From assembly GCA_030157745.1 (NCBI GenBank), contig JAOAUE010000027.1:1314-47665 (forward strand): a DNA stretch of 46,352 bases. Direction: 5' to 3'. Positions 6,184 to 29,177 of the stretch are shown in pieces. Under the pieces are notes generated by a model, which saw only the letters and a list, made by a program, of their open reading frames with translations, made no database searches and was not told where the DNA came from. The position numbers were made by a program, and so were the translations under genes. The first letter of the stretch is position 1, and each line of letters starts with the position of its first letter. This DNA comes from Minisyncoccota bacterium (lineage in GTDB: Bacteria; Patescibacteriota; Minisyncoccia; Phycocordibacterales; UBA9973).

Positions 6184-6229
6184 AGTTTGACCTTTTTTTG
6201 GCTTTGTAGTATATTGTCTTTTGTAACTC

Positions 6230-6439: not shown

Positions 6440-6485
6440 ATAGTATATAATAGCCCTCTCTGACCGAGAAACCTTTCCTATTTTT

Positions 6486-6596: not shown

Positions 6597-6600
6597 TATT

Positions 6601-6981: not shown

Positions 6982-6987
6982 AAAATC

Positions 6988-7419: not shown

Positions 7420-7423
7420 ACAT

Positions 7424-8035: not shown

Positions 8036-8084
8036 TAAAGCATAAACTTGCAAAAATTACAAAATAATTGTATTATTTAAAACC

Positions 8085-9080
8085 ATGAGCCAGCAAACAA
8101 TCATACTTCCATCAAAACCAAAAGCAGTATTAGAAGAAGGATTTAAGGGCGTGTACGAGATAGACGGACTTGTTCCAGGATACGGATACACCCTTGGAAA
8201 CTCACTTCGCAGAATAATCTTATCTTCTCTTAGAGGTTCTGCAGCAACAGCTGTAAAAATAAACGGTGTTAGCCATGAATTCTCTACAATAGAAGGCGTT
8301 AAAGAAGACGTTATAACAATGCTTCTTAATATCAAAAATATTCGCTTCAACCTCTCTGGAGACGAAGCACAAAAAGTAACTCTTTCTGTAAAAGGACCAA
8401 AAGTTATAACTGCAAAAGACCTAAGTTCAAATGGTTCTGTAGAAGTTATCAACTCTGACCAATACATTTGCGAAATAACAGGCAAAGCAACTCTAGATAT
8501 CGAAATCACCATCGAAAAAGGTCTAGGATTTGTTCCTCGTGAACAACACCACAAGCAAAAAGCTGAGATTGGTACAATCTTTTTGGATGCCATCTTTTCA
8601 CCAATCCGCCGTGTATCTTACGACGTTGAAGAAATGCGTGTAGGGGACAAGACAAACTTCAATCGACTACGTATGACTATCGAAACAGATGGTTCTATCA
8701 CTCCACGCGAGGCTCTAGAGCAATCAGTCCACACTATGATTGAGCAACTAGCTGCTATTATTTCTGTTGATTCACAAAAGATAGTAGAAGAGATCCAAAT
8801 GTCTATCTCTACTCCAGCCTCTTCTGAAAAAGCTTCTATGACAGAAAAAGGTGAAGACGATGAAGATGTAGATGTAACTGATGTTTTGAAAAATCGCATC
8901 GACACTATCGGCCTTTCAACTCGTACACTTAACGCTCTCTCTGCTGCAAATATCCGAACAGTTGGAGGTATTGCTCGCAAGAAAGTTGAAGATCTCCTAG
9001 AGATAGACGGTATAGGGGACAAGGGTATTACTGAGATCAAAGAAGCACTTTCTGCTTTTAACTTGTCACTTAAGGATTAA
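8085..9080 (+). CDS. rpoA: DNA-directed RNA polymerase subunit alpha
   Basis: GYGYTLGNSLRRILLSS-type N-terminal domain. The C-terminal domain reads LSTRTLNALSAANIRTVGGI. Confidence 0.95.
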   Translation: MSQQTIILPSKPKAVLEEGFKGVYEIDGLVPGYGYTLGNSLRRIILSSLRGSAATAVKINGVSHEFSTIEGVKEDVITMLLNIKNIRFNLSGDEAQKVTLSVKGPKVITAKDLSSNGSVEVINSDQYICEITGKATLDIEITIEKGLGFVPREQHHKQKAEIGTIFLDAIFSPIRRVSYDVEEMRVGDKTNFNRLRMTIETDGSITPREALEQSVHTMIEQLAAIISVDSQKIVEEIQMSISTPASSEKASMTEKGEDDEDVDVTDVLKNRIDTIGLSTRTLNALSAANIRTVGGIARKKVEDLLEIDGIGDKGITEIKEALSAFNLSLKD

Positions 9081-9104
9081 TTTGTTAATGTAAGGAACAC
9101 AGAT

Positions 9105-9461
9105 ATGAGACACCACAACGCCAACAGAACATTTGGAAGAGATAAAAATCAAAGAAGCGCCCTTCTCAAAGGTCTTGCCGCGTCTCTTATTGAACATGGT
9201 AGTATTTTGACTACTGAAGCAAAAGCCAAAGAGCTTCGTCCGAAAGTAGAAAAAATGGTTACAAAAGCCAAAAATCCTACTCTAACAAACCGAAGACTTC
9301 TTCTTTCTTCTCTTTATAACAACACTTTTGTGGTGGATAGACTTATCGGAGAGATCGCCCCAAAATTTGAGAAACGTGCAGGCGGATACACTCGCATTAC
9401 AAAAGTAGTTCAAAGAGCTGGTGATGCTAGTAAAATGGCAGTAATAGAGTTTGTGAGTTAA
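9105..9461 (+). CDS. rplQ: 50S ribosomal protein L17
   Basis: MRHHNANRTFGRDKNQRSALLKGLAASLIEHGSILTTEAKAKELR. Confidence 0.95.
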   Translation: MRHHNANRTFGRDKNQRSALLKGLAASLIEHGSILTTEAKAKELRPKVEKMVTKAKNPTLTNRRLLLSSLYNNTFVVDRLIGEIAPKFEKRAGGYTRITKVVQRAGDASKMAVIEFVS

Positions 9462-9466
9462 TTATT

Positions 9467-9814
9467 ATGGAATACACAGTAGATGCAACAAATAAATCCC
9501 TAGGACGAGTAGCTACAGAAGTGGCATCTTTGCTCATGGGCAAAAATACAACTTCTTTTGTAAGAAACGAGACACCAAATGCAAAGGTGACTATCGTTAA
9601 TGCTTCAAAGATAACTATCCCAAACCAAAACAAACTTTTGGAAAAGACTTACAACTCTTTTTCAGGCTATCCAGGTGGACTCAAGCAATCAACAATGGCA
9701 CATGTAGTTTCTACAAAAGGCTACAGTGAAGTACTAAGACAAGCTGTCAAAGGCATGCTTCCAAAAAACCGCCTTCAAACAACTCTTATGAAGAACTTAA
9801 AGGTTAGCGAATAA
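9467..9814 (+). CDS. rplM: 50S ribosomal protein L13 (short, 115 aa)
   Basis: VDATNKSLGRVATEVASLLMGK and AVKGMLPKNRL are L13 motifs. Confidence 0.9.
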   Translation: MEYTVDATNKSLGRVATEVASLLMGKNTTSFVRNETPNAKVTIVNASKITIPNQNKLLEKTYNSFSGYPGGLKQSTMAHVVSTKGYSEVLRQAVKGMLPKNRLQTTLMKNLKVSE

Positions 9815-9834
9815 TAATTTTAAATACTGCTTAT

Positions 9835-10239
9835 ATGGAAAAATCAAAGAAAACATACATAGAAACTATCGGCCGACGCAAAACTTCAACTGCGCGTGTT
9901 CGTATGACTCCTAGCACAAAGCAAAGCTACGAGATCAACGACAAAGATTTGGCTACTTATTTCGCAACTACAGAACTTCAAAAGATAGTTACAGATGCTT
10001 TTACTACACTAGATAGCAAGTCTCACTACAGTATCACTGTTAAAGTCTCTGGTGGTGGTATCCACTCTCAAGCTGAAGCTATCCGCCATGGTATCTCTCG
10101 TGGACTTGTAAAAGAAGAAGAGGGCACAAAAACAACTCTCAAAAAAGCTGGCTTCCTCAAGCGTGATCCTCGCATGAAAGAACGACGCAAATTCGGTCTC
10201 AAAAAGGCGCGTAAGGCTCCACAATGGTCTAAGCGTTAA
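9835..10239 (+). CDS. rpsI: 30S ribosomal protein S9
   Basis: GRRKTSTARV near the N-terminus, GGGIHSQAEAIRHGISRGL, and C-terminal RKAPQWSKR. Confidence 0.95.
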   Translation: MEKSKKTYIETIGRRKTSTARVRMTPSTKQSYEINDKDLATYFATTELQKIVTDAFTTLDSKSHYSITVKVSGGGIHSQAEAIRHGISRGLVKEEEGTKTTLKKAGFLKRDPRMKERRKFGLKKARKAPQWSKR

Positions 10240-10247
10240 AAACAATC

Positions 10248-10270
10248 AAGTCCCGTATGGGGGCTTTTTT
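10248..10270 (+). terminator. intrinsic terminator after rpsI
   Basis: AAGTCCC / GGGGGCTT hairpin followed by a T6 run. Confidence 0.6.
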
Positions 10271-10319
10271 GTTTGACAAACAAATATTTGTGAGTAATAT
10301 CAAGAAAAACTACAACATT

Positions 10320-10559
10320 ATGGAAATATTAGAAAGTCTTCAAGAAGGGGTTTACGTCTTACTGGTGACCAAATCAGGGCTCCTTATCAAAGGTACAGTG
10401 AAAAATGTATCTAAAGAAAAAAAGATTGTTACCCTCGAAAAAGAGGAGGATGAGGAAAGAGTTGAGTTCCTTCAATCTGGTAATGGTGCGGTCTATACAG
10501 CAAAAACAGTAGAGGTGGATTTTGATTTTATTGGAGCAATAGGAATAGATCCTACCTAA
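10320..10559 (+). CDS. hypothetical small protein (79 aa)
   Basis: The tracked ORF start at 10257 lies inside the rpsI terminator hairpin. The ATG at 10320 (MEILESLQEG) is the first plausible start. No motif recognised. Confidence 0.45.
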   Translation: MEILESLQEGVYVLLVTKSGLLIKGTVKNVSKEKKIVTLEKEEDEERVEFLQSGNGAVYTAKTVEVDFDFIGAIGIDPT

Positions 10560-10567
10560 GCTCTACC

Positions 10568-10595
10568 AGCCCGGACACATAGTCGGGCTTTTTTG
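10568..10595 (+). terminator. hairpin terminator (AGCCCGGAC-ACATA-GTCGGGCT + T-run)
   Basis: Read directly. The same stem appears in inverse orientation at 10930-10950. Confidence 0.7.
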
Positions 10596-10640
10596 TTTAT
10601 GGTTAAATTATATGCTATAAAGATACAAATTGTAACGATT

Positions 10641-10916
10641 ATGAAAAATACAGGAAACATAGATCCACTAAAAAAATGGGAGTATATTCTTGAAAAAGAA
10701 AGAATAGACTTTAAAAAATTTGAAGACGGTCTTCAGGCAAGAATAGATAAAAGGGATGGGGAAGGTCACAGTACATTGCAAATTAACATATACTACAACA
10801 AATCAATTGGAGTATTTGCTAATTTCAAAGGATTGGGTGAACTAGTCCCAAAACTCACTCCTACTGAAGCGATTGAAAAGTTCAAAACATACAAACTCGC
10901 TTTTTTTAGTAATTAG
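10641..10916 (+). CDS. hypothetical small protein (91 aa)
   Basis: The tracked ORF start at 10593 overlaps the terminator T-run (10568-10595). The ATG at 10641 (MKNTGNIDPL) is preferred. No motif recognised. Confidence 0.45.
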   Translation: MKNTGNIDPLKKWEYILEKERIDFKKFEDGLQARIDKRDGEGHSTLQINIYYNKSIGVFANFKGLGELVPKLTPTEAIEKFKTYKLAFFSN

Positions 10917-10929
10917 CTCTCTTAAATCA

Positions 10930-10957
10930 AGCCCGACTATGTGTCGGGCTTTTTTTA
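10930..10957 (+). terminator. hairpin terminator (AGCCCGAC-TATGT-GTCGGGCT + T-run)
   Basis: Read directly. Its loop is the reverse complement of the loop at 10577-10581. Confidence 0.7.
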
Positions 10958-11000
10958 TTTAAAAAAATAAATATACCAATACTACAGAATAAAAAAGTAA

Positions 11001-11049
11001 CTTTGGTCTCAAGAATGCCCGAAAAGCTCCACAATGACCTACTATAAAG
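11001..11049 (+). repeat. degenerate copy of the last ~45 nt of rpsI
   Basis: Ungapped alignment to 10191-10239. I count 31 of the first 40 positions identical, including the 11-mer GCTCCACAATG (10216-10226 and 11026-11036). It is followed by its own terminator at 11051-11075. Confidence 0.65.
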
Positions 11050-11050
11050 A

Positions 11051-11075
11051 AAAGCCCCCGAAAAAGGGGCTTTTT
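11051..11075. terminator. bidirectional hairpin terminator
   Basis: AAAGCCCC / GGGGCTTT stem flanked by A- and T-runs. It lies downstream of both the rpsI-copy segment (+) and the 11098..11526 gene (-). Confidence 0.65.
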
Positions 11076-11097
11076 GCTTACTATTTGTTAACTTGTG

Positions 11098-11526
11098 CTA
11101 TAAGGGTTTTATGTAGGAACCTGTTCCATCTTTAGGAAAATGAATTCTTGTACCCTTATCATAGTAAAACTCCATATATGTTCCCATGTCGCTTACTAAC
11201 CACTTTTTTTCATCAGGCATCCAGATCACTCCAATTTGGTTGAAATAAATACCTTCCTGATAGAAAAATATATTTGGTATAAGGCGCTCCGTGTTTTTTG
11301 ATAAAATTAACGGGCCTTCTGTCCCAGATATCTGCTTAGATATCAATAAATTAATATCATGGTTTGCACTTTTCTGTGAGTTGTAACAGTATATCTTATT
11401 ACTTCTCATGAGTTCGACAACATTGTCTACTTCTCGCGCAAGTGTGATATACCTTTTACTTTGTGCAGTCGCATGGAACGTACAAGTCAGTACAAAAAAT
11501 AAGCTGGAAAAGAGTTTATATTTCAT
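11098..11526 (-). CDS. secreted hypothetical protein
   Basis: From the ATG at 11526 the N-terminus MKYKLFSSLFFVLTCTFHATAQ looks like a signal peptide. No domain recognised. Confidence 0.5.
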   Translation of the reverse strand: MKYKLFSSLFFVLTCTFHATAQSKRYITLAREVDNVVELMRSNKIYCYNSQKSANHDINLLISKQISGTEGPLILSKNTERLIPNIFFYQEGIYFNQIGVIWMPDEKKWLVSDMGTYMEFYYDKGTRIHFPKDGTGSYIKPL

Positions 11527-12479: not shown

Positions 12480-12983
12480 TTATTTCACCATCTCAAAAAA
12501 GGCTTTGCGGGTTTCGGTGTCGATGTTATCTGTGACAAAGACCATGAGCTCGGTAGTTAGACCAAAGTCTTTTTTGATATTGGCAAAGAGGTATTCGTAG
12601 GGGAAAGGAGAGATCCAGACACTATTTTTCAGACACACAAAACCAGCCTTTTTGAGGAGATATCGGAGAGCTTCTCTCTCGTCCTTTCGACTCTCTGGAA
12701 GGTCTAGGAGTGCTATGCGCCACTTGCCATCCCAAGCAGGAGTGATGTTGGTGGTGTCTTGCTCCAAAGAGAGGCTATGTAGCTTCCTTCTGCCGGCCTT
12801 TGTGAGCTTCACATAATCATTTTGACCACTATAGTGGTTCTCCACCAAGCCAGACTCCGAAAGCCCTCTGAGAGAGCGTTTTAGCGCATTTTGAGGCCCT
12901 AGGTGACCCATTTCAGATACTACCAAAGCCGGCTTTTCAGCCAATAATTTCAATATTTTTTTAGAAAAAGATTGTTTTTGCAT
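12480..12983 (-). CDS. PaaX-like winged-helix transcriptional regulator
   Basis: wHTH-like LKRSLRGLSESGLVE..VKLTKAGRRKL is followed by WDGKWRIALLDLPESRKDEREALRYLLKKAGFVCLKNSVWISP, the pattern I associate with PaaX-family C-terminal domains. Start taken at the ATG at 12983. Confidence 0.6.
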   Translation of the reverse strand: MQKQSFSKKILKLLAEKPALVVSEMGHLGPQNALKRSLRGLSESGLVENHYSGQNDYVKLTKAGRRKLHSLSLEQDTTNITPAWDGKWRIALLDLPESRKDEREALRYLLKKAGFVCLKNSVWISPFPYEYLFANIKKDFGLTTELMVFVTDNIDTETRKAFFEMVK

Positions 12984-12989
12984 AAATAG

Positions 12990-13018
12990 TTGACAAACCA
13001 ATAATTATCTGCTAAGAT
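12990..13018 (+). promoter_or_regulatory. sigma70-type promoter TTGACA-N17-TAAGAT
   Basis: TTGACA 12990-12995, 17-nt spacer ending in TGC, TAAGAT 13013-13018. Two further TGCTATAAT extended -10 boxes lie at 13032-13040 and 13057-13065. Confidence 0.55.
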
Positions 13019-13081
13019 ATGATTAGAAATTTGCTATAATTTTTTTTGTATATATATGCTATAATATCGATGTAAATCGGG

Positions 13082-13109
13082 CCCCTCTTTACAAAAAGAG
13101 GGGTTTTTT
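13082..13109 (+). terminator. intrinsic terminator in the paaX-like/dnaK intergenic region
   Basis: Perfect 9-bp stem CCCCTCTTT / AAAGAGGGG with a 4-nt loop and a T6 run. Confidence 0.75.
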
Positions 13110-13115
13110 ATTTTC

Positions 13116-13144
13116 TTGACACAAAAAAAGGATAGCACTATACT
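13116..13144 (+). promoter_or_regulatory. dnaK promoter TTGACA-N17-TATACT
   Basis: Read directly. It leaves a ~100-nt leader that contains the inverted repeat CAAGTATTT / AAATACTTG and a direct repeat ATTTTGCG. Confidence 0.6.
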
Positions 13145-13246
13145 TACTTTTGTACAAGTATTTTGCGACCACGAAAAGACTGTTAAATACTTGATTTTGC
13201 GTTATCTTTCAACTTTATAAACTTTATAACTTTTAACTAACTACAT

Positions 13247-15121
13247 ATGGGAAAAATAATTGGAATTGACCTCGGAACTACAAACAGCGCTGTTGCCATC
13301 ATCGAAGGTGGACAGCCAAAAATTATAGAAAATATCGAAGGCGCACGAACTACTCCATCTATTGTGGCAGTGGGCAAAAATGGCGACCGCCTTGTTGGCC
13401 TTCTTGCAAAAAGACAAGCAGTAACAAACCCTCAAAATACTATCTACGGTGTGAAGCGCTTCATGGGACACAAATACGATGATCACGGAATGGAAAAAGT
13501 GATCAAGACTTCTCCTTTTTCTGTGACAAAAGATATCAACGGTGGCGCACTTATCAAGCTCGGCGACAAAGACTCACGCCCAGAAGAAATCTCAGCGATG
13601 ATACTCCAAAAGATCAAAGCAGATGTCGAAGCCAAGCTCGGAGAAAAAGTTACAGAAGCTATCATCACCGTACCAGCATACTTCAACGACGCACAACGAA
13701 AAGCTACCAAAGACGCTGGTGCTATCGCAGGACTAGATGTGAAGCGTATCATCAACGAGCCGACAGCAGCGGCACTTGCTTATGGCTTTAACAACAAAAA
13801 GAATGAAAAAATAGTTGTTTATGACTTTGGAGGTGGGACATTTGACGTTTCAGTTCTCGAAGTTACAGAAGATGTTATAGAGGTGAAAAGTACAGATGGA
13901 GACTCACTCATGGGAGGCCGTGATATCGATCTCAAGATCATCAACTGGATAGCAGAAGAATTCAAAAAGCAAAGTGGTGTCGATGTTTCAAAGGATCCAC
14001 TAGCTCTACAGCGTCTGGATGAAGCTGCAGAAAAAGCAAAGATAGAACTCTCTACAACACCAGAAACTGAGATCAACATTCCATTTATCACTTCGACTGA
14101 CGCTGGACCACAGCACTTGCTCCTCAAGATGTCTCGCGCAAAGCTTGAAGAGCTAGCTGATGAATTCATCGCACAGTCTATCGACATCACCAAGCGAGCT
14201 GTTGAAGCCTCTCCATTTAAAAAAGAAGAGATCAACGAAATCATCATGGTCGGAGGACAAACTCGCATGCCAAAGATAGTCGAAGAGGTACAAAAGTTCT
14301 TTGGCAAAGAGCCAAACAGATCTATCAACCCAGATGAAGTTGTAGCGCTCGGTGCCGCAGTACAAGGAGGTGTACTCCAAGGAGATGTGCGCGATGTGCT
14401 TCTTCTTGATGTTATACCTCTATCTCTAGGGATAGAAACTATGGGAGGAGTTGCAACAAAACTTGTTGAAAGAAATACAACTATTCCTTCATCAAAGAGC
14501 CAGATATTTTCTACCGCAGCTGACAATCAAACTTCTGTTGAGATTCATATCACTCAAGGTGAGCGCCCTATGGCAAGCGACAACAAGAGTCTTGGACGAT
14601 TTATCCTCGATGGTATCGCTCCAGCACCTCGTGGTATCCCACAAGTAGAGGTGACATTTGATGTTGATGCCAACGGTATTCTATCAGTGAAAGCAAAAGA
14701 CAAAGCCACAGGCAAAGAACAGTCTATCCGCATCGAAGCTTCTTCTGGTCTTTCAGCAGACGATATCGAAAAAATGAAAAAGGATGCTGAACTCCATGCT
14801 GATGAAGACGCCAAAAAGAAAGAACTCGCTGATATCAAAAACACAGCCGACCTTACTATCTTTACAGCCGAGAAATCTCTCGTTGATCACAAGGACAAAA
14901 TCACTGAAGAGATCAAGACTGGTGTTGAAGCAAAGATTGCGTCTCTCAAAACAGCAAAAGACGGAACAGACAAAGCCGCTATCGAAACTGCGATTCATGA
15001 ACTCTCAACAGAAATGCAAAAGATAGGGGAAATAGTTGCTTCGGCAAGCTCAGCACAAGAAAAAAATGAATCCTCAGAAGGATCAGTAAAAGACGCGGAA
15101 GGGGAAGAAAAGGCGGAGTAA
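13247..15121 (+). CDS. dnaK: molecular chaperone DnaK (Hsp70)
   Basis: [17 protein letters not shown] and VGGQTRMP motifs. Full-length at 624 aa. Confidence 0.98.
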
Positions 15122-15126
15122 GACAC

Positions 15127-15155
15127 TTGACAATTTAGGGGCAACATGCTAAGAT
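15127..15155 (+). promoter_or_regulatory. promoter TTGACA-N17-TAAGAT directly after the dnaK stop
   Basis: TTGACA 15127-15132, spacer ending in TGC, TAAGAT 15150-15155. Confidence 0.6.
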
Positions 15156-15161
15156 TAACTT

Positions 15162-15250
15162 AGAACATAAACATGACTACATCTTACTTAGCCATGTTGG
15201 TAATTTAGGAGTTAACAGAAGGGTTGCCGTTTCCACGGGAACCCTTTTTT
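15162..15250 (+). ncRNA. candidate small RNA (~90 nt) bounded by a promoter and an intrinsic terminator
   Basis: The promoter is at 15127-15155. The terminator GGGTTGCCG / CGGGAACCC plus T6 is at 15221-15250. No ORF longer than about 11 codons lies between them. Confidence 0.4.
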
Positions 15251-15567
15251 GTTTCTAGCTTATATATGATTTTGTGTTAAAATAGCTTGTATGAATCACG
15301 TACGAAACCGCGGTCACGGTTACGTATAGTGGTACAAAAGTTATATTTCTAAATTGGACTTTTATTAACGCTATAATAATTAAAACAGAGAGTAGACCGC
15401 GACCTGTTTCGTACGTGATGAACAAGAAGAGAAAAATCGCTGCAAAAAAGAAAAGAAAAGCTGACGGGAAAACAGTCAGTCTGCGCCACCGCTAATATTG
15501 GCGAGATAACCAAGACTTACAAAAAGAAAGTCCCGCCAAAAACGGGACTTTCTTTAAATTAAAAACA

Positions 15568-16644
15568 ATGTCAAAAGACTATTACAAAACATTAGGAATA
15601 GAAAAAAGCGCTTCTAAAGAAGAAGTCAAAAAAGCCTTTCATAAAATGGCGCACAAATACCATCCTGACAAAAAGGATGGGGATGAAGCCAAGTTCAAGG
15701 AGGTCAACGAAGCCTACCAAGTCCTCTCTGATGATCAGAAGCGCTCAGCTTATGATCAGTTCGGTTCTGATGGCCCGCAATTTGGCGGAGGTGGAGCAGG
15801 CTTTGATGGTTTTGACTTCGGTAATTTCTCTGGGGGTTTTTCACAAGGTCAAGGTGGCTTTGAGTTTGATATAGGCGACATGTTCGGCAGTATGTTTGGT
15901 GGAGGTGGACGCCGTGGCAAACCTCGCGGAGCCGATTTGCAAACAAACATGACTATAGATTTCAAAGAATCAGTCTTTGGTGTAGAAAAAGAACTCAAGG
16001 TAACCAAACCTTCTGTTTGCAACACTTGTAAGGGCGATGGCGCAACTCCTGGTACCAAACTTCACGAGTGCGATAAATGTAAAGGTTCTGGAACTATACG
16101 CACAGTACAGCGCACCATCATCGGACAAATAGCGACCAACGCTACTTGTGACAAATGTCACGGAGTCGGCAAAATACCAAAGGATCCTTGCAAAACTTGT
16201 CGGGGAACTGGTGTTGTAAATGACACTCGCACTATTCGCATAACTGTCCCAGCCGGAATTCAAAACGGCGAGACACTCAGGCTCTCAGGTATGGGCGAAG
16301 CAGTCCAAGGCGGGCAAGCAGGAGACTTGTATGTACACATCTCTGTTGCTCCACACAAAAATATTTCTAGAAAAGGCGCAGACTTGTATGCAAACCTAGA
16401 TATTCGTCTTACCGATGCGCTTCTTGGAAATACTTATGAGATAGAGACACTAGACGGAACAAAAAAAGTAGAAGTTCCTAGTGGCACAAAGATAAATTCC
16501 CAAGTAGTTTTGAAAGGTCTTGGTGTGCCGACCAGCCGAAGTCATCGCGGGAACTTTGTGGTAAACCTCAATATCAAAATGCCAGAAAAACTTTCCAAAG
16601 AAGCTAAAGCGCTAGTAGAGGAACTCAAAAAAGAGGGGATATAA
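15568..16644 (+). CDS. dnaJ: molecular chaperone DnaJ
   Basis: J domain with HPD (KYHPDK), a G/F-rich linker, and four CxxCxGxG zinc-finger repeats. Confidence 0.97.
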   Translation: MSKDYYKTLGIEKSASKEEVKKAFHKMAHKYHPDKKDGDEAKFKEVNEAYQVLSDDQKRSAYDQFGSDGPQFGGGGAGFDGFDFGNFSGGFSQGQGGFEFDIGDMFGSMFGGGGRRGKPRGADLQTNMTIDFKESVFGVEKELKVTKPSVCNTCKGDGATPGTKLHECDKCKGSGTIRTVQRTIIGQIATNATCDKCHGVGKIPKDPCKTCRGTGVVNDTRTIRITVPAGIQNGETLRLSGMGEAVQGGQAGDLYVHISVAPHKNISRKGADLYANLDIRLTDALLGNTYEIETLDGTKKVEVPSGTKINSQVVLKGLGVPTSRSHRGNFVVNLNIKMPEKLSKEAKALVEELKKEGI

Positions 16645-16650
16645 AAAAGA

Positions 16651-16678
16651 AAAAGTCCTGATTACTCAGGACTTTTTT
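16651..16678. terminator. bidirectional terminator between dnaJ and the convergent membrane-protein gene
   Basis: GTCCTGA / TCAGGAC stem flanked by A- and T-runs. Confidence 0.7.
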
Positions 16679-16679
16679 G

Positions 16680-17180
16680 TTAAACATTTTCTAAATGCTC
16701 GTGCTTGTGGGGGATAAGGTGCGACAAAACACAACCAACTATTCCACCGAGGACAAAATAAACCATCAGAGATTCATGCTCGCTGTGTGAACTAAAGTCA
16801 TCTATATACTTTGGTAAAAACAAATATATAGAACCTATAGCCACAACACCTGAAAGGAAAAGTGGTATTTTGGCTTTTTTAAAGTGCTTGCTTGTTTCCC
16901 CAAAAAGAAAAATGAAATCAAGAGCGACATGAAAAAAGAACCAGAAAGCTACCCCACCGTATACTGGATGAGCACTATACTCTATGGCCTCAAGCACCAT
17001 ATGCACCAAAAGAAAAAGGATGCTCAAAATACTAGAAAAGCGATGAGCAAAAATAGCCAACAAAAATCCTCCAAAGATTAGAGGCACTGACCAATTTGGC
17101 TCAAAACCAGTTTCGGCTATATGTACACTGAGGGCTACAAGGTAGCCAAAAAGAAATACTTTCCAAAGAATATTTTTCAT
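16680..17180 (-). CDS. His-rich polytopic membrane protein, unknown function
   Basis: 166 aa with about 5 TM segments. Histidines recur in or near the TM segments and at the C-terminus (HLIPHKHEHLENV). Confidence 0.5.
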   Translation of the reverse strand: MKNILWKVFLFGYLVALSVHIAETGFEPNWSVPLIFGGFLLAIFAHRFSSILSILFLLVHMVLEAIEYSAHPVYGGVAFWFFFHVALDFIFLFGETSKHFKKAKIPLFLSGVVAIGSIYLFLPKYIDDFSSHSEHESLMVYFVLGGIVGCVLSHLIPHKHEHLENV

Positions 17181-17246
17181 AATTTATGATTAAAAGTTTA
17201 CCACACTTTACAGTATTTTTATGGAAAGTAAATAGATGATAGGTAT

Positions 17247-17348
17247 TTGACAAATGACTATAAATATGCTATGATATAAGTATAAGGTTCTTTGAGCGTT
17301 TTAGTTGGTTTTCCAGAGTTTTCTGAAAAAGGAGAGTTTTGGTAAACC
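17247..17348 (+). promoter_or_regulatory. promoter (TTGACA-N17-TATGAT) plus conserved 5' leader, module A
   Basis: By hand alignment, 95 of 102 nt are identical to 18422-18523. The last 51 nt are identical, including AAGGAGAG and a TTG codon. Confidence 0.7.
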
Positions 17349-17364
17349 CGCTAAAATATAAAGT

Positions 17365-17538
17365 ATGATACAAAAAAAAGTAATATACTCGATTATAATT
17401 TGTCTCACAATTGGATTTGTGATTGCAAATTATACATACCAACTCTTTACAAAAAGAGACTGGACAAAAGCTACCGAGCGTTCTTATTTTCAGATTGGAC
17501 TAGCGATTACAATCTGTGCAATGATTGCTACAAAGTAG
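17365..17538 (+). CDS. small two-TM protein (57 aa), module A
   Basis: Found by hand: MIQKKVIYSIIICLTIGFVIANYTYQLFTKRDWTKATERSYFQIGLAITICAMIATK. Its ATG overlaps the TGA of a 9-codon upstream ORF (17339-17368). A terminator lies at 17552-17583. Confidence 0.5.
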   Translation: MIQKKVIYSIIICLTIGFVIANYTYQLFTKRDWTKATERSYFQIGLAITICAMIATK

Positions 17539-17551
17539 ACTATATACAATG

Positions 17552-17583
17552 AAGCCTCCGAAACAAAACGGAGGCTTTTTTTA
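17552..17583 (+). terminator. intrinsic terminator of module A
   Basis: AAGCCTCCG / CGGAGGCTT stem plus T7. The tail GGCTTTTTTTATTGCCC (17573-17589) is identical to 18744-18760. Confidence 0.75.
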
Positions 17584-17638
17584 TTGCCCAATTTTATTAT
17601 TACAAAATAAAAAACTAGCATTTCTGCTAGTTTTGTTT

Positions 17639-18190
17639 TTACTTTTTTAATTTTAACCAATCACTTTTAAATACTGCCAAAAGAATCTCATCATGATACT
17701 TTCCGTCACGGTAAAACTGCTTGATGCGTTTACCTTCGATTTTGTAGCCACAGTTAAGGTTGTGTTTGATACTGCCCTTATTATCAGCAAAGGCAGCGCT
17801 ACAGATCTTTCTCAGGTTAAGTGTCATAAAGGCATATTCCAATACAAGCATTTTTGCTTCCTTGGCATATCCCTTGTTCCATTCTTCTTTGGCGCCAAGC
17901 ATAGAGCCCGTAGTTGCGACACCATCTACATAGTTGATTTTCATTAGAGCCATTGTGCCAAGAAGTTTTTGATTTTTCTTGAGAACAACGGCAAAATTAA
18001 CATCTCCACCACGCGTCATTACTTTCTTTATCCAAGTTTCTTCATCAATTTTGGATACTGGTATGACGTTGGTAAGATACCGACGTACCACTGGATCATT
18101 TGCATACCTTTGTAAGGTTTCTAGATCAGAGAGATCGATTGGTCGCAAATAGATTCTTTTTCCTTCGAGAAAAACAATTTTGTCCTGCAT
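17639..18190 (-). CDS. GNAT family N-acetyltransferase (RimJ/RimL-like)
   Basis: 183 aa. The pattern is LRPIDLSDLETLQRYANDP ... EWNKGYAKEA ... LNLRKICSAAFADNKGSIKHNLNCGY, typical of the RimJ/L-type acetyltransferase fold. Confidence 0.75.
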   Translation of the reverse strand: MQDKIVFLEGKRIYLRPIDLSDLETLQRYANDPVVRRYLTNVIPVSKIDEETWIKKVMTRGGDVNFAVVLKKNQKLLGTMALMKINYVDGVATTGSMLGAKEEWNKGYAKEAKMLVLEYAFMTLNLRKICSAAFADNKGSIKHNLNCGYKIEGKRIKQFYRDGKYHDEILLAVFKSDWLKLKK

Positions 18191-18391
18191 AATATTTAAT
18201 TTTTAAGGTTAAAAAAACCGGCATCACAGGCCGGTGTTTATACAGAAATCAAAAGTTTACTTATGCACAAAATAACGGCCAACGAGAAAAAGCGGAGAGG
18301 GAAATAGCTCCCGCTGTCATATGGACTGTATTTTGTTTTGCACATAAATAATGCATGGGTTTTATATTAGCACATTTTTGTTAAAAGTAAA
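18191..18391 (-). promoter_or_regulatory. structured leader with promoter and two terminator-like hairpins upstream of the GNAT gene
   Basis: On the minus strand: TTTACT-N16-TAATAT (18391-18364, spacer ending TGC). A 12-bp long-range stem pairs 18328-18347 with 18261-18276. One hairpin plus T5 is at 18314-18284. A second, ACCGGC/GCCGGT plus T7, is at 18235-18211, 20 nt before the ATG at 18190. Confidence 0.5.
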
Positions 18392-18421
18392 CATATCGTG
18401 CAAATAGCTACATTTTTATAA

Positions 18422-18523
18422 TTGACAAGTCACTATAAACATGCTATGATATAATTATAGGGTTCTTTGAATGTTTTAGTTGGTTTTCCAGAGTTTTCTG
18501 AAAAAGGAGAGTTTTGGTAAACC
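18422..18523 (+). promoter_or_regulatory. promoter (TTGACA-N17-TATGAT) plus conserved 5' leader, module B
   Basis: Paralogue of 17247-17348; see that entry. Confidence 0.7.
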
Positions 18524-18708
18524 AATTAAAAGAAACAATGAAATATTTAAACGCAATCGGATTTTTCTTACTTTTTGCTTTTATTGCAATTTTGATAGTT
18601 GCAGTAGAAAGTAAGAATATTAATTCTTTTATTTTTGCTGAAATTTGTGCCTTTGCTGGTATTATATGTATTGCAATAGCAAACAGAAAACAAAAAGTGC
18701 TGGTGTAA
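18514..18708 (+). CDS. small two-TM protein (64 aa from TTG, 56 aa from the ATG at 18538), module B
   Basis: ORF track. Here the conserved leader TTG codon is in frame with the hydrophobic body (MVNQLKET-MKYLNAIGFFLLFAFIAILIV...). A terminator lies at 18725-18753. Confidence 0.5.
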   Translation: MVNQLKETMKYLNAIGFFLLFAFIAILIVAVESKNINSFIFAEICAFAGIICIAIANRKQKVLV

Positions 18709-18724
18709 TATCTGCAAAAAGTGT

Positions 18725-18753
18725 GGCCTTCTCCAAAAGAGAGGGCTTTTTTT
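18725..18753 (+). terminator. intrinsic terminator of module B
   Basis: GGCCTTCTC / GAGAGGGCT stem plus T7, with the same GGCTTTTTTTATTGCCC tail as module A. Confidence 0.7.
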
Positions 18754-18786
18754 ATTGCCCGATTTATTGTAAAATACACCTTATAT

Positions 18787-20244
18787 ATGGCATCGCTAGA
18801 AGAGCTCCGAGAGGAGAGACTGAAAAAGAAAGCTATTCTCGAAGAGAGAGGCTTTGATACCTATCCTGCCAAAAGTGAGCGTACTCACACTATATTTCAG
18901 TTCAAAACCCAATTTGAAGCTCTTGCAGAGAACAAAGAACAAGTAACTCTAGCTGGGCGTATCATGAGCGCTCGTGGACAAGGAGCTCTGGCTTTTTCTG
19001 ATATTTTTGATGGCTCTGGCAAAACACAGCTTTTCTTGAAAAGTGACGAGATGGATGCAGAAGCTTATGCTCTCTGGAATGAAACTACCGATGTCGGAGA
19101 TTTCGTAGAAGCGACAGGTATTGCATATATGACAAAAAGAGGCGAACAAGCACTCTTTGTATCTGGATGGCGCATGCTTACCAAAAGCCTTCTTCCGCTA
19201 CCTGAGAAATGGCATGGCATCACTGATCCAGACGAAAGATACCGCAAGCGATACCTAGATATCCTAACTGATTCAGAACTCCAAGACCTCTTCTACAAGA
19301 AGTCACAATTTTGGGAAGTTACTCGCAACTTTATGAAAGAAGCAGGTTTTCTAGAAGTAGAAACCCCAACTGTTGAAGTAACTACCGGTGGCGCAGAGGC
19401 AAATCCTTTCAAAACACATCACAACGATTTTGATATCGATGTCTTTATGCGTATATCTGTTGGAGAACTCTGGCAAAAGAGACTGATGGCTGCAGGATTT
19501 GCCAAGACATTTGAAATAGGACGCGTATACCGAAATGAAGGCTCAAGTCCTGACCATCTCCAAGAATTCACCAATATGGAGTTCTACTGGGCTTTTGCTG
19601 ACTATGAAATGGGTATGGACCTTGTAGAGCGACTATATAAGAAAATAGCAGTAGATGTTTTCGGCAAGACTGAATTCACAACACGCGGACATACTTTTGA
19701 TCTCGGAGAAGAATGGAAGAAAATAGACTATGTACAGGAAGTAGAAAAGCAAACAGGTATCAATGTGCTCGATGCATCTGACGAAGACATGAAAGCCAAG
19801 CTCGATGAACTCGGCGTGAAATACGAAGGTGCAAACAAGGAACGTCTCACTGACACACTTTGGAAATACTGCCGAAAGAATATCTCTGGTCCTGCATTTC
19901 TCGTACGTATACCAAAGCTCGTCTCACCACTAGCAAAATCATGTACTGATGATCCTAGAGTAACAGAAAGATTCCAAGTACTCCTTGCGGGCTCAGAAGT
20001 AGGCAATGGCTTCTCAGAACTCAATGACCCAATAGATCAACGTGCTCGCTTTGAACTCCAACAAAAACTTATAGAAAGTGGCGACGAAGAAGCAATGATG
20101 CCTGAATGGGAATTCGTAGAAATGCTCGAACACGGCATGCCACCGACTTGTGGCTTTGGCTTTGGCGAAAGGCTATTCGCTTTCCTTGTAGACAAACCTC
20201 TTCGCGAAACACAACTCTTTCCACTTTTGAAACCTAGAGAATAA
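18787..20244 (+). CDS. lysS: lysine--tRNA ligase (class II)
   Basis: Start moved to the ATG at 18787 (MASLEELREERLKK), because the tracked start at 18721 lies in the module B terminator. The motifs FLEVETP, FEIGRVYRNEG, and GGFGFGERL-type class II motif 3 are present. Confidence 0.95.
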   Translation: MASLEELREERLKKKAILEERGFDTYPAKSERTHTIFQFKTQFEALAENKEQVTLAGRIMSARGQGALAFSDIFDGSGKTQLFLKSDEMDAEAYALWNETTDVGDFVEATGIAYMTKRGEQALFVSGWRMLTKSLLPLPEKWHGITDPDERYRKRYLDILTDSELQDLFYKKSQFWEVTRNFMKEAGFLEVETPTVEVTTGGAEANPFKTHHNDFDIDVFMRISVGELWQKRLMAAGFAKTFEIGRVYRNEGSSPDHLQEFTNMEFYWAFADYEMGMDLVERLYKKIAVDVFGKTEFTTRGHTFDLGEEWKKIDYVQEVEKQTGINVLDASDEDMKAKLDELGVKYEGANKERLTDTLWKYCRKNISGPAFLVRIPKLVSPLAKSCTDDPRVTERFQVLLAGSEVGNGFSELNDPIDQRARFELQQKLIESGDEEAMMPEWEFVEMLEHGMPPTCGFGFGERLFAFLVDKPLRETQLFPLLKPRE

Positions 20245-20250
20245 ATTTAT

Positions 20251-21114
20251 ATGACTTCTAAAACATCTGAAGAGAAAATTAAAAAGTTTATTGAAAAAAC
20301 AGGTTTTATTTTAGAAATGAAGGTATCTCAATATTTAATAGAGCAAAACTGGCAAGTAGAAGTGGGAAACTCTTTTATTGACCTAGAAGAAATGAAACGA
20401 AGAGAAATTGATATAGTGGCAACAAAAATTATTAATAATATAGAGGTTACATTAATAATAGAGTGTAAACAAAGTAATCAAGATCAATGGGTTTTTATTT
20501 GTTCTTCAAAAAACCCTACTAGGTTCTATTATTCAACTAAACACAGCCCAAAAATAAAAACTTTGAGTAGTAAAAAAATACTTAATGTAATGCACACAAT
20601 GGATAAAACAGTTTCTCTTGCTCAAAACTATATAACTTTTGATAAACGTAAAAATAAAAAAGCTAATACTTTACAAATCGAAGAATCTCTATATAAACTA
20701 CCCAAATCTTTAATAGATGTTGCCAGAAAAAGTATTATTTTTCAAGAAGAAAAAAAGAAAATTTTTATCCCTTGTTGCATTTTTAGTGATGAAATATTTT
20801 CTGCTCAATATTCAGAAAATGGACTATCAGTAAAAGAGCAGTCTGTAATTCAATATAATATTCAGTTTGAACCAAAGGCTTATAGTAAAAAAAATAGATT
20901 AAAGATAGACGAAAGCTTTACAGAAACATTAGGTAAAGAGAGTGTTAACATATCTCCTCTTATAATAGAAATGATTTTAGATATCGCAGATAAGTTTGGA
21001 ACAAAATACCAAATAGATTTTGTTAGCAATAAACATTTAAAAGATTACTTAAATAAGGTTGAAGAAGGTGTAAAACTTATATCAACCAGAAAATGGTCAA
21101 TGAACGTTAAGTAA
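20251..21114 (+). CDS. PD-(D/E)xK nuclease-fold protein (Mrr/Hjc-like N-terminal domain) with an unknown C-terminal half
   Basis: GFILEMKVSQYLIEQNWQVEV ... REIDIVATK ... TLIIECKQS fits the D...(D/E)xK restriction-endonuclease-like core. By eye the gene is visibly more AT-rich than lysS. It starts 6 nt after the lysS stop. Confidence 0.55.
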   Translation: MTSKTSEEKIKKFIEKTGFILEMKVSQYLIEQNWQVEVGNSFIDLEEMKRREIDIVATKIINNIEVTLIIECKQSNQDQWVFICSSKNPTRFYYSTKHSPKIKTLSSKKILNVMHTMDKTVSLAQNYITFDKRKNKKANTLQIEESLYKLPKSLIDVARKSIIFQEEKKKIFIPCCIFSDEIFSAQYSENGLSVKEQSVIQYNIQFEPKAYSKKNRLKIDESFTETLGKESVNISPLIIEMILDIADKFGTKYQIDFVSNKHLKDYLNKVEEGVKLISTRKWSMNVK

Positions 21115-21118
21115 AAAT

Positions 21119-21547
21119 ATGAAAATCACTAAATTTGAAAAATCTGATTTTGATTCACTAGAGAATCTGAAAGCGAAAGCTTGGTCAACGGCCGACAAAG
21201 AACATTATGGTGAAATTCAGCCTGTTTTCTTTAAAGAAGAATTTACTCTTACTGCAAAAGAAGGTGATGAGGTTGTAGGATACATAACTGTCATTTGTGA
21301 TAGCGGTGTGGCACAAATAGAGCCTCTTATGGTTGACCCTGACAAAAAAGGACAAGGTATTGGCTCAGCACTCCTACAAGAAGCCGAAAAGATGGCAAAA
21401 GAAAAAGGTGTTCACAAGCTTTGGCTTGAGACAGGGGAAGACTGGAAAGCAAAAGAGTTTTATCTAAAACATGGATACACTGTTCGCGCAGACTTACCAA
21501 ACCATACTGGTGGATACAACTTTGTTTTAATGGATAAGATGATTTAA
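21119..21547 (+). CDS. GNAT family N-acetyltransferase
   Basis: 142 aa. VDPDKKGQGIGSALLQEAEKMAKEKG is the acetyl-CoA binding Q/RxxGxG/A motif. Confidence 0.8.
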   Translation: MKITKFEKSDFDSLENLKAKAWSTADKEHYGEIQPVFFKEEFTLTAKEGDEVVGYITVICDSGVAQIEPLMVDPDKKGQGIGSALLQEAEKMAKEKGVHKLWLETGEDWKAKEFYLKHGYTVRADLPNHTGGYNFVLMDKMI

Positions 21548-21552
21548 GAGAT

Positions 21553-22161
21553 ATGGAAAACCAAAATAATGATTTAGAAATGAAACCGAAATTCGAAATT
21601 GCTTATAGAGGCAAGATGTTTGAGGTTGTGACTTGGGAAGGCAAGCCAGGTGTGACATTTGAAGCTGCAGTTCGGGCTCCTGGAGTACGACTTCTTATTG
21701 AGACAGAAAAAGGTGGTGAAAAAGCACTCCTTATGACACGAGAACTCAGAAGGGAGGTGGGTGGTTGGGATTATAGACTTCCAGGAGGCAAGGTATTTGA
21801 TACTTTGGAAGAACTCGACAAGCATAGAGAATCAGGACAAGACATAGCTCCACTTGTAGAAGAAGCAGGCAAAAAAGAAGGGGAGCAAGAAGCAGGTATT
21901 TCTGGTGGCAACTATGAACAAATAGCAGTATCAAAAGCTGGAGCGTCAGTAGAATGGGATTTGCACTATCTCAAGGTTACAGGCGCACAGATAGGAGAGC
22001 AAAACCTAGAAGAACATGAGCAAGGGGACATCGAGACAGTCACACTCTCAGCACAAGAAATATTTGAAAAGCTTACAAACAGAGAAATCAAAGAAGGTCG
22101 TAGTGCCGACATGCTCTGGTCATGGCTTTATGAAAATGGGTTTATAGGGTTTAAGAAATAA
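21553..22161 (+). CDS. Nudix-like hydrolase (divergent)
   Basis: LPGGKV ... an inserted segment ... EEAGKKEGEQEAGI approximates a Nudix box GX5EX7REUXEEXGU interrupted by an insertion. Confidence 0.5.
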   Translation: MENQNNDLEMKPKFEIAYRGKMFEVVTWEGKPGVTFEAAVRAPGVRLLIETEKGGEKALLMTRELRREVGGWDYRLPGGKVFDTLEELDKHRESGQDIAPLVEEAGKKEGEQEAGISGGNYEQIAVSKAGASVEWDLHYLKVTGAQIGEQNLEEHEQGDIETVTLSAQEIFEKLTNREIKEGRSADMLWSWLYENGFIGFKK

Positions 22162-22162
22162 T

Positions 22163-22717
22163 ATGAAAAAAGTTTTTATAATTCATGGTTTTGAGGGAAT
22201 GCCAAACGGAGCGTGGCGAGGGTGGCTCATGCAAGAACTTGAGAAACAAGATATATACGCATGTGCGCTTCCAATGCCGACACCAGAAGCTCCTATCAAA
22301 CAAGAATGGGTGGACGAGATTTCTAGAGCTATAGAAATGAATCCAACTGACGACATATACCTCGTTGGGCATAGCCTTGGTTCAACAGCTATTTTAAGAT
22401 ACTTAGAAACTAGTGATCAAAAAATCACTGGAATAGTTTTGGTTTCTGGACCAATTATTAAAACAATGAATAGAAAGATTGATAACTTCCTAGAAACACC
22501 ATTTGATTTTGAAACCATAAAGACAAAAGCAGAAAAGTTTGTAGTGATTCATGGAGACAATGACCCCTATGTGCCTGCAGTAGATCATGGAGACATTTGC
22601 TCTAAAGCTCTAGACGCGCAATATATTGTCATCAAAAATGGCGAACACCTAAACGGTTCTGCTGGCTACCACGTACTTCCTGAATGTTTAGAAGTGTTAA
22701 ATAGTATAATGAAATAA
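22163..22717 (+). CDS. alpha/beta serine hydrolase (YdeN/RBBP9-like)
   Basis: MKKVFIIHGFEG..., nucleophile elbow GHSLGS, and a late HGDNDPYVP ... EHLNG. This is the pattern of the small serine-hydrolase family. Confidence 0.7.
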   Translation: MKKVFIIHGFEGMPNGAWRGWLMQELEKQDIYACALPMPTPEAPIKQEWVDEISRAIEMNPTDDIYLVGHSLGSTAILRYLETSDQKITGIVLVSGPIIKTMNRKIDNFLETPFDFETIKTKAEKFVVIHGDNDPYVPAVDHGDICSKALDAQYIVIKNGEHLNGSAGYHVLPECLEVLNSIMK

Positions 22718-22718
22718 T

Positions 22719-22814
22719 ATGAAAACAATACTTGTAGACGCAGTAAATACAAAAGCTAACAAAGACACTCGCGACCTTGTTGCTTTAAAAGACTTTTTGG
22801 ATAAGAATTTATAA
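22719..22814 (+). CDS. very small ORF (31 aa), possibly a gene fragment
   Basis: Found by hand: MKTILVDAVNTKANKDTRDLVALKDFLDKNL. It uses the same AAATAATATGAAAA stop-start junction as the preceding gene pair. Confidence 0.3.
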   Translation: MKTILVDAVNTKANKDTRDLVALKDFLDKNL

Positions 22815-22815
22815 T

Positions 22816-23466
22816 ATGAACCAAATAAACGAAACATTTCCTCAGAATAACGAACAGCCAAAAACACAAGAAGAACTTGAGGTATTGTTAGAAAAAGCCA
22901 AAAAAAGACTGTCGAGTGAAGAAAAACGAGCCGGTGAGTTTTATAATATTGAACTTTATCAAGTATTTGAGGAGGCGATCAAAAATTTTAACAGTGATTC
23001 TGAGGTAATTAGAGTTTATTTAGACTCAATAGGTAAAGATTATGACCAAGCTGAAGAAAACCTAGATAAAAAAATGCTTTTTGATAGAACTTATATAAGA
23101 CCGATAAAAAAAGAAATTCAAGAAATCGAAAACTCTTTACGTGCAATAAAAAATAAAGAATATAGACTGCAACAAGAACAACTAGAGAAAGAAAGTGAAC
23201 AAAAAGAAGAAGAAGCTTTTAATAAAGAAAAACAGCAACTTGAGATAAAATTATACGAAGCTTTGAGCAAGATACATGATCAGATACCAAAAGAAGCAGA
23301 AGATATGGGGATGACTACTGAGTCAGCGATGAAGGTTTACCTCCCAAACTTAGTTGATCATGCTCATAGACTTGAATCATTAATAAATCAACTTAGTGAA
23401 GTAAAGAATTCTTATGAACTTACGCTTTTTAAAAAAGACCTCGTTTTTAGTAGAATAGATTTATAA
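22816..23466 (+). CDS. coiled-coil hypothetical protein (216 aa)
   Basis: ORF track. It is E/K/Q-rich with heptad-like composition. An 18-nt perfect direct repeat flanks it (22807-22824 and 23459-23476). Confidence 0.5.
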   Translation: MNQINETFPQNNEQPKTQEELEVLLEKAKKRLSSEEKRAGEFYNIELYQVFEEAIKNFNSDSEVIRVYLDSIGKDYDQAEENLDKKMLFDRTYIRPIKKEIQEIENSLRAIKNKEYRLQQEQLEKESEQKEEEAFNKEKQQLEIKLYEALSKIHDQIPKEAEDMGMTTESAMKVYLPNLVDHAHRLESLINQLSEVKNSYELTLFKKDLVFSRIDL

Positions 23467-29114: not shown

Positions 29115-29177
29115 ACTAAAGTTTGACAAAACGTATTAAGGATGTAGTATTGTCTCAAACAAAAAAACACCTTTAAT

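Follow-up and report, generated by a model that had tools for sequence, protein, structure and literature searches.

A conserved bacterial leader normally has a conserved gene behind it, and its function is guessed from that link. Among the described systems with features in common with the locus considered here, the type I toxin mRNAs hok, tisB and fst carry a small hydrophobic open reading frame (ORF) that is driven by a strong promoter and has a 5' fold of great stability near its start; in the RNase III-processed leaders of E. coli adhE and phage lambda N, cutting of long helices in the 5' untranslated region (UTR) can turn translation on; chromosomal integron arrays, such as the Vibrio VCRs, hold unrelated short ORFs between near-identical attC hairpins, in which the base is conserved and the tip variable, and these arrays vary by strain; and phage 'morons' are autonomous promoter-gene-terminator units. 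The present subject is a pair of cassettes in a 46,352-nt stretch of contig JAOAUE010000027.1 of a Minisyncoccota bacterium (assembly GCA_030157745.1), hereafter the window, in which near-identical promoter and hairpin leader sequences precede unrelated small genes between a His-rich membrane protein gene and lysS. The two cassettes are interpreted, with a probability of roughly 0.6 for the whole statement, as paralogous copies of a lineage-specific, cis-acting, post-transcriptional expression module.

A further described class, the putative mobile promoters (Matus-Garcia, Nijveen & van Passel 2012), is defined by an identity of 80% or more along a minimum of 50 nt, within positions -150 to -50 of two starts in one genome, with non-paralogous coding sequences downstream, and some such elements are really RNA motifs (PMC3575422). 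In the window, 17244-17315 lies inside the -150 to -50 interval and is about 90% identical to its counterpart over 72 nt, including all 7 mismatches between the copies. The genes that follow, ORF A and ORF B, give no BLASTP alignment at E≤100, and their DNA scores z=0.7 against shuffles, in keeping with a first-pass annotation of the same DNA, which had described the coding bodies as unrelated.

Two cassettes in a common frame

The longest repeat of the region is a direct repeat of 113 nt (17244-17356 and 18419-18531) with 90% identity. Within it, as had been counted by hand in the first-pass annotation, the segments 17247-17348 and 18422-18523 agree at 95 of 102 positions, and their last 51 nt are the same, where shuffles of the window lead one to expect 0 such matches; the 7 mismatches (17254, 17256, 17265, 17280, 17285, 17296 and 17297) all fall in the first 51 nt. 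The consensus promoter reported earlier is found in both copies, as TTGACA-17-TATGAT with TG ahead of the -10 box (11/12), and both units end in intrinsic terminators whose shared tail, GGCTTTTTTTATTGCCC, occurs in the window only at 17573 and 18744. The architecture assigned to the small proteins likewise holds, with two hydrophobic stretches in each (57 and 56 amino acids, aa). Judging from the position of the -10 boxes, we infer transcription starts near 17282 and 18457. The features of the two cassettes are as follows.

17247-17275, + strand: promoter A, TTGACA-17-TATGAT with TG before the -10 box
17282-17364, + strand: leader A (predicted 5' UTR), comprising single-stranded AUAAGGUUCUUUGAG, the hairpin and a 9-nt spacer; covariance model 88.8 bits
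17299-17356, + strand: hairpin A, of 13 bp, a U·U mismatch and 12 bp (G·U-rich), with loop GAAAAA; minimum free energy -26 kcal/mol, z -4.5
17365-17538, + strand: ORF A, 57 aa, two transmembrane helices, unannotated small-protein family
17551-17589, + strand: terminator A, stem 17551-17578, T-run 17576-17582, conserved tail ATTGCCC
18422-18450, + strand: promoter B, TTGACA-17-TATGAT with TG
18457-18537, + strand: leader B (predicted 5' UTR); covariance model 90.5 bits
18474-18531, + strand: hairpin B; minimum free energy -28.6 kcal/mol, z -5.2
18538-18708, + strand: ORF B, 56 aa, two transmembrane helices; homologues in L010/L011 (91%) and L014 (62%)
18725-18760, + strand: terminator B, stem 18725-18747, T-run 18747-18753, tail ATTGCCC

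Relatives of the module

The DNA of the window also lies in a contig of 191,824 bp assembled from an aquatic metagenome (ERZ964694). Relatives, numbered here as loci (L010 and so on), were found through homologues of ORF B, a conserved 22-nt block and homologues of the 166-aa membrane protein encoded to the left of the cassettes; together they bring the number of leader copies to nine, from about six metagenomic populations, and a close ORF B homologue is annotated as Candidatus Paceibacterota. The first-pass annotation had staked the idea of a functional RNA on the existence of further copies, and these are present in relatives at the same locus. In every locus compared, dnaJ is followed by the gene of the membrane protein on the - strand, then by one or two modules, and by lysS where the contig reaches.

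L010/L011: a single module in the interval from the membrane protein gene to lysS, carrying a homologue of ORF B; without ORF A and without the GNAT gene that separates the cassettes in the window
L012: a module whose soluble ORF is new, preceded by a reverse-strand gene; the contig ends within the ORF, short of where lysS would lie
L013: a pair of modules separated by 409 nt, whose soluble ORFs have 57 and 103 aa; without the GNAT gene
L014: a remnant ORF that lacks a promoter, followed by the GNAT gene and by a module whose ORF is homologous to ORF B
L027/L028: a single module, whose membrane ORF has 156 aa
L029: likewise a single module, whose membrane ORF has 87 aa

Beyond this locus the leader was not encountered. 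A covariance model built from the nine copies and run with filters off found only the two copies in the window, none in 9 kb of extra contig and none elsewhere in the other loci compared; scans of genome and metagenome collections with an exact 33-nt sequence and with a degenerate hairpin gave no match; and a synteny search with the 166-aa protein in GTDB genomes returned only the L011 contig. The 22-nt block conserved with L010 retrieved L012-L014, plus L015, a chance match, and two 18-mer matches in viral contigs were likewise set aside as chance, being unconfirmed by the covariance model. In the clade of L019-L026, with a membrane protein 75% identical to that of the window, an insertion sequence (IS) with an rve-family transposase occupies the module position (L020 82-948), just upstream of the membrane protein gene, and many short contigs end there; contigs of this clade that seemed to break at the leader were rejected as extra copies, the breaks lying at the IS.

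Conservation and structure of the leader

Both promoter hexamers are kept in all nine copies, the first half of the spacer being variable. The conserved blocks of the nine-copy alignment are the hexamers, TAAATATGC ahead of the -10 box, the 5' segment TAAGGTTCTTTGAAG and then GTTTTAGTTGGTTTTCCAGAGT; there follow a variable 14-30 nt and conserved GTTTTGGTAAACCAAYTAAA, with the ATG 0-12 nt further on. The core of the module is thus a 5' segment of about 16 nt and a hairpin, rich in G·U and at least 25 bp long, whose tip is free to vary and whose base is invariant. Over its 64 columns this core is 83-95% identical in all pairs, whatever the distance between them, compared with 65-76% for dnaJ and lysS; the flanking genes of the window are 89.5% identical to those of L010, and in comparison with L013, L027 and L029 the values are 70-76% for dnaJ and 65-68% for lysS. 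Synonymous divergence (dS) of ORF B between the window and L014 is about 1.1, which is saturated, and the identity of the core despite saturated synonymous sites therefore places the leader under strong purifying selection.

RNAalifold folds the nine sequences into a single helix of 25 pairs in which 96% of cells are paired, a proportion that falls to 37-63% when the partner columns are slid by 1-3 positions, and the covariation score of the hairpin exceeds those of all 500 shuffles. Exchanges among G-U, G-C and A-U occur at two basal pairs, double changes are seen near the tip, and every lineage-specific tip lengthens the helix, including the GC-rich CCGCCAGCTGGCGG insert shared by L013 and L014; single-sequence folding gives z-scores of -3.7 to -5.2. 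Hairpins A and B fold at -26 and -28.6 kcal/mol in sense, against -12.4 and -14 kcal/mol in antisense. Only the sense strand folds well because many of the pairs are G·U, and sense-only folding, together with the promoter in fixed register, points to RNA rather than DNA. The flanks, which the earlier reading had held not to be the debris of neutral duplication, are accordingly conserved, structured and predicted to be transcribed. That reading had also recognised no described riboswitch class, and in an Rfam search of the window only a tRNA passes the gathering threshold; the best matches of the leader at E≤10 are eukaryotic miRNA and snoRNA models, far below threshold. A literature search for a described Patescibacteria leader found nothing relevant.

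Start codons and the genes behind the leader

The identical 3' half of the repeat contains a Shine-Dalgarno (SD)-like tract, AAGGAGAG, and a TTG codon, both singled out in the first-pass annotation. They are real in this genome, where the hairpin helix includes them, but are not conserved in relatives, being absent in L012 (which has GGAACAATATTCTGG) and altered in L010, L027 and L029. An SD-like motif precedes only 8 of 49 window genes, even with a lenient pattern, and many window genes have a TATAAT-like -10 box 7-11 nt before the ATG, which suggests that the mRNAs of this genome are mostly leaderless or near-leaderless. The lack of conservation of AAGGAGAG and TTG and the rarity of SD motifs speak against sequestration of an SD or start codon. 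The start proposed for ORF B at TTG 18514 gives way to ATG 18538 (56 aa), where its homologues start and which is, from this comparison, the most likely start. No reading frame is conserved through the leader, and a leader peptide was dismissed for that reason: an upstream ORF from TTG 17339 stops at ATGA in two of the copies and in another is in frame, and a longer 'MVFQSF' ORF would require the 3' arm to be read in three different frames across copies. Mimicry of the tRNA-Lys anticodon by the 5' segment was also considered; no convincing stem was seen by inspection.

The genes behind the leader (payloads) belong to at least six unrelated families, three of them of soluble proteins. Hydrophilic payloads measure 57, 103 and at least 86 aa, and membrane payloads in relatives 87 and 156 aa; homology is confined to the ORF B family and to L027 versus L029 (E=1e-9), all other pairs being unrelated. 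The part of the earlier interpretation that posited a cis-regulatory leader therefore stands as regards a conserved structured element, and its restriction to small membrane proteins does not, soluble payloads being included. No payload matches Pfam, PHROGs, PADLOC or NCBIfam, and a link to known defence or phage families was rejected in the absence of PADLOC or PHROG matches. In all eight payloads whose end is on the contig (of nine; that of L012 is cut), the ORF fills the space from helix to terminator, and the probability of an ORF of 56 codons or more at random is 0.014. Members of the ORF B family differ in the spacer from helix to ATG, which is 0, 7 or 10 nt.

ORF A was considered as a spurious orphan when a word-indexed search returned only itself, a view abandoned after a full HMMER scan of 1.84e9 representatives revealed a real family: 21 further proteins at E≤1e-3, most of 45-65 aa, with the motif YQxFTKxDWxxAxERS(F/Y)FQ between the two helices and no Pfam or PDB match. 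The three relatives with genomic context all lie between rpsB-tsf and proS (L035 4001-4177, L036 2315-2482, L037 4001-4198), behind short leaders and with no copy of the lysS-locus hairpin; as the family sits elsewhere without the leader, ORF A is an import placed behind the lysS-locus leader. ORF B has three homologues with ratios of nonsynonymous to synonymous substitution (dN/dS) of 0.21-0.45, and is, judged by these ratios, a real gene under purifying selection.

A proposed expression module and its history

In a clade of Paceibacterota the module would have a fixed place, with the gene for the His-rich membrane protein on one side and lysS on the other, and would consist of a near-consensus sigma-70 promoter, a leader of about 85 nt, a start codon 0-12 nt past the helix, and a short ORF with an intrinsic terminator. 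Strong purifying selection on the sense RNA would hold the leader, the ORF behind it having been replaced many times. The long helix by the AUG may be a cis-acting gate that works post-transcriptionally, on translation and/or on the stability of the mRNA: ending 0-12 nt before the AUG, it would hinder initiation unless cut or opened, and translation of the ORF would first require either cutting by a nuclease specific for double-stranded RNA, for instance RNase III, or a factor that opens or binds the helix. For RNase III, continuous double-stranded RNA of at least 20 bp is the relevant length, and the helix offers 25 consensus pairs, one U·U mismatch and lineage-specific extensions. Invariant sequence in both arms, with G·U pairs never changed to G-C, suggests protein recognition or a need for limited stability. 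Translation gating and recognition by a nuclease or other protein are both inferred. It is rather doubtful that a lineage-specific machine, be it an RNA-binding regulator or a recombination system, recognises the invariant hairpin as its site. Were it so, the site upstream of lysS would be a dedicated 'expression socket' in which very small genomes swap small accessory genes, trying out genes much as integrons do, except that the site itself would provide promoter, leader and terminator.

Several observations weigh against this interpretation. The alignment holds only nine copies, from a handful of metagenomic populations and known by sequence only; most helix positions are invariant, and double-sided covariation is limited to three pairs near the tip; and the AUG itself is usually predicted to be unpaired. 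In the clade of L030, whose membrane protein is 75% identical, the promoter is kept (L030 170-290, reverse strand: TTGACA ... TATAAATATGCTAATGT) and is followed by an unrelated hairpin, GGATGTA ... TACATCC, and a different ORF, so that the element is dispensable or replaceable.

The shared end of the two units bears on how they arose. A motif within it, TTTTTTATT(G/A)CC (window 17577-17588 and 18748-18759), stands directly 3' of the pre-lysS terminator in the clade and also follows the pre-proS terminator in other Patescibacteria (L035 4222, L036 3238, L037 4246), at 22-46 nt from the ATG of the synthetase gene, and occurs nowhere else in the window or in the compared loci. It therefore belongs to the region before those synthetase genes and may be a common promoter or control element of aminoacyl-tRNA synthetase genes; the alternative that the tail is part of the payload was rejected on the same location. 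On this evidence from motif position, the shared tail is lysS-upstream region duplicated with the unit, cassette A holding the duplicate copy. The stretch of about 20 nt that follows terminator A and its tail resembles the lysS -10 region, a lysS-promoter-like remnant common to the window and L014. In L013 (6395-6432, 5855-5895, reverse strand) and L014 (5945-5975), the terminator tail is followed by a hairpin TCCCGCC-NAGTA-GCGGGA, which is not in the window and may be a small repeat element.

A tandem duplication would have copied the entire unit, -35 box and lysS promoter region included, before this lineage and that of L014 separated. The window is collinear with L014, at 81.5% identity, over the stretch that starts with terminator tail A and takes in the GNAT gene, leader B, ORF B and lysS, and the tandem state is therefore older than that separation. 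The single module of L010 has a left flank matching cassette A and an ORF matching cassette B, exactly the arrangement that deletion between two leader repeats would yield. The 18-nt tip is 100% identical in hairpins A and B, compared with 11-56% for most copies from different lineages, and the mismatches between the window copies are confined to the promoter half (Fisher p=0.0125); an identical tip in a part that varies between lineages, with mismatches only upstream of it, fits gene conversion, by which the two window hairpins would later have been homogenised.

Alternative explanations

Conservation of the leader regardless of the downstream gene would also be expected if the leader were itself the product, a small or protein-docking RNA acting in trans or independently of the ORF, with the ORFs hitch-hiking on a strongly transcribed unit; both arms are conserved beyond the needs of pairing, invariant G·U pairs included, and the payloads are functionally incoherent. 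This explanation is nevertheless unlikely, because no terminator or U-run follows the hairpin, so that the RNA runs into the ORF, and because each copy has an ATG and an ORF within 12 nt, the eight with visible ends filling the unit to its terminator. The same features can be viewed at the level of DNA, with the hairpin as an attC-like or other single-strand recombination site for cassette exchange: the cassettes cease to be homologous at the hairpin's 3' base, a variable tip stands on a conserved base in the manner of attC, payloads have turned over repeatedly, tandem arrays exist in L013 and the window, and one strand folds far better than the other. Each cassette, however, has its own consensus promoter in fixed register 16 nt before the helix, whose ends read GTTTTAG ... 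CTAAAA/TTAAAA, with no RYYYAAC/GTTRRRY core sites by inspection, and the called genes of L001 and L033 (about window 1-11,500 and 12,700-23,200) encode no integrase or recombinase Pfam domain. The spacer from helix to ATG, moreover, varies even in the ORF B family, and the terminator stem of cassette 1 in L013 matches that of the ORF B family, leaving no fixed 3' junction; a recombination site is accordingly thought distinctly improbable. Slightly less credit still is given to neutral reuse, in which a strong promoter and its leader were copied before new genes and the leader only carries the promoter. The pair falls under the published description of putative mobile promoters (PMC3575422), and copies within a genome are more alike than copies between genomes, but across synonymously saturated lineages the hairpin is better conserved than the promoter spacer, dnaJ or lysS, and its structure is kept through replacement of the tip.

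The two classes named in the first-pass annotation fare worst. A type I toxin-antitoxin system, in which hydrophobic toxins would be kept from translation by the 5' UTR fold and an antisense RNA, agrees with the two hydrophobic helices and small size of ORF A and ORF B (56-57 aa), the strong promoter and the very stable helix by the start. Consensus scans, which weak or unusual promoters could escape, found no - strand promoter conserved in the cassette among the window, L010 and L014, the only shared weak - strand site being the reverse of the lysS start region; hydrophilic ORFs stand behind the same leader and the payloads are not a toxin family; the SD-like tract is unconserved in a genome that rarely uses SD sites; and the ORF A relatives at proS loci lack such a leader. 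Little remains of this proposal, and as little of a riboswitch or RNA thermometer sensing ligand or temperature, for which a conserved leader without Rfam match, the many G·U and A-U pairs and the adjoining heat-shock genes dnaK-dnaJ might be cited. The leader is one unbranched helix with a freely varying tip, without junctions or loops carrying invariant unpaired bases and with no competing fold or alternative expression platform apparent; the genes behind it, in at least six unrelated families of membrane and soluble proteins, none annotated, have no common function; and a helix of 25 bp or more that folds at -22 to -31 kcal/mol at 37 C, with no functional SD, has far too much stability for melting in an aquatic organism. 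The expression module acting in cis on its own transcript is therefore preferred.

Flanking genes

The genes and signals around the two cassettes are as follows.

16680-17180, - strand: 166-aa six-helix membrane protein, left flank; divergent from the module and beside the leader in every related locus
17611-17634, no strand assigned: bidirectional terminator at the 3' end of the GNAT gene; outside the module and common to L014
17639-18190, - strand: GNAT (Acetyltransf_3) gene between the modules; Pfam 1.2e-22
18770-20244, + strand: lysS with its putative -10 box, right flank; Pfam tRNA-synt_2 9.4e-65; ATG at 18787, an almost leaderless start

The 166-aa protein has invariant residues H20, H46, H60, E64, E67, H84, D88, H99, H154, H158 and H162, with His, Glu and Asp placed within helices (HMVLEAIE, HxxxD) and a His-rich tail. 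It has no sequence match in Pfam, NCBIfam or PDB, one Joint Genome Institute (JGI) record names it ArgO, and its AlphaFold model (pLDDT, the predicted local confidence, 59.6) is too poor for a fold search; from its residues it looks like a metal-ion transporter. On the right, lysS follows the module in all relatives whose contig extends far enough, with a putative -10 box TAAAAT at 18770-18775.

Among relatives the GNAT gene is found only in L014, and it is missing from L010, L013, L027, L029 and the sequenced part of L012; it is an incidental passenger between the modules. It has its own - strand promoter, TTTACT, 16-17 nt and TAATAT with TG (window 18191-18396; L014 5340-5560), and a leader of about 150 nt, 85% conserved with L014, which contains a long-range helix and an intrinsic terminator (18235-18217) 27 nt ahead of the GNAT ATG. 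A 31-aa ORF in this leader is broken by a 1-nt indel and the leader is probably non-coding; it has no significant Rfam match (best E=8.7) and is, from its predicted folds, a candidate attenuator or riboswitch-like leader. Elsewhere in the window, the cumulative GC skew peaks at about 29,000-30,500, where gene orientation shifts from mostly plus to mostly minus, a combination that fits a replication terminus.

Comparison with known systems

Conservation of the module's leader exceeds that of the housekeeping genes beside it, whereas the gene under its control is exchangeable, and this combination points to an RNA function independent of the payload. Almost nothing is known of post-transcriptional control in the Candidate Phyla Radiation, and a structured 85-nt leader, as an exception in an apparently leaderless and SD-less genome, could show how such ribosomes handle long 5' UTRs; the locus is also a compact natural series of gene replacements within a constant regulatory frame.

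With putative mobile promoters, the module shares similar upstream regions before non-paralogous genes of one genome (PMC3575422). It differs in that the transcribed hairpin is what is mainly conserved, in that the terminator side is conserved too, and in its occupation of one syntenic locus across diverged lineages, rather than a spread to many loci. The leaders of hok, tisB and fst are alike in combining a small hydrophobic ORF, a strong promoter and stable 5' structure near the start; in the module no antisense RNA gene was found, no SD is conserved, and soluble proteins are encoded as well. It looks like integron arrays in that an imperfect hairpin, conserved at its base and variable at its centre, recurs among unrelated short ORFs, and it departs from them in having a promoter and terminator for each unit, only one or two units, pairing of the RNA type (G·U), no core sites, and no integrase in the called genes of L001 and L033. 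Phage 'morons' are similarly self-contained transcription units between two core genes, whereas the module lies in a chromosomal core context (dnaK-dnaJ, lysS), where the frame is constant and only the ORF changes. The leaders processed by RNase III resemble it in the near-perfect helix of more than 20 bp in the 5' UTR by the initiation region; there is no sequence relationship, and cleavage in the module is a hypothesis, by which a helix maintained across lineages would be removed before whichever small gene follows it is translated.

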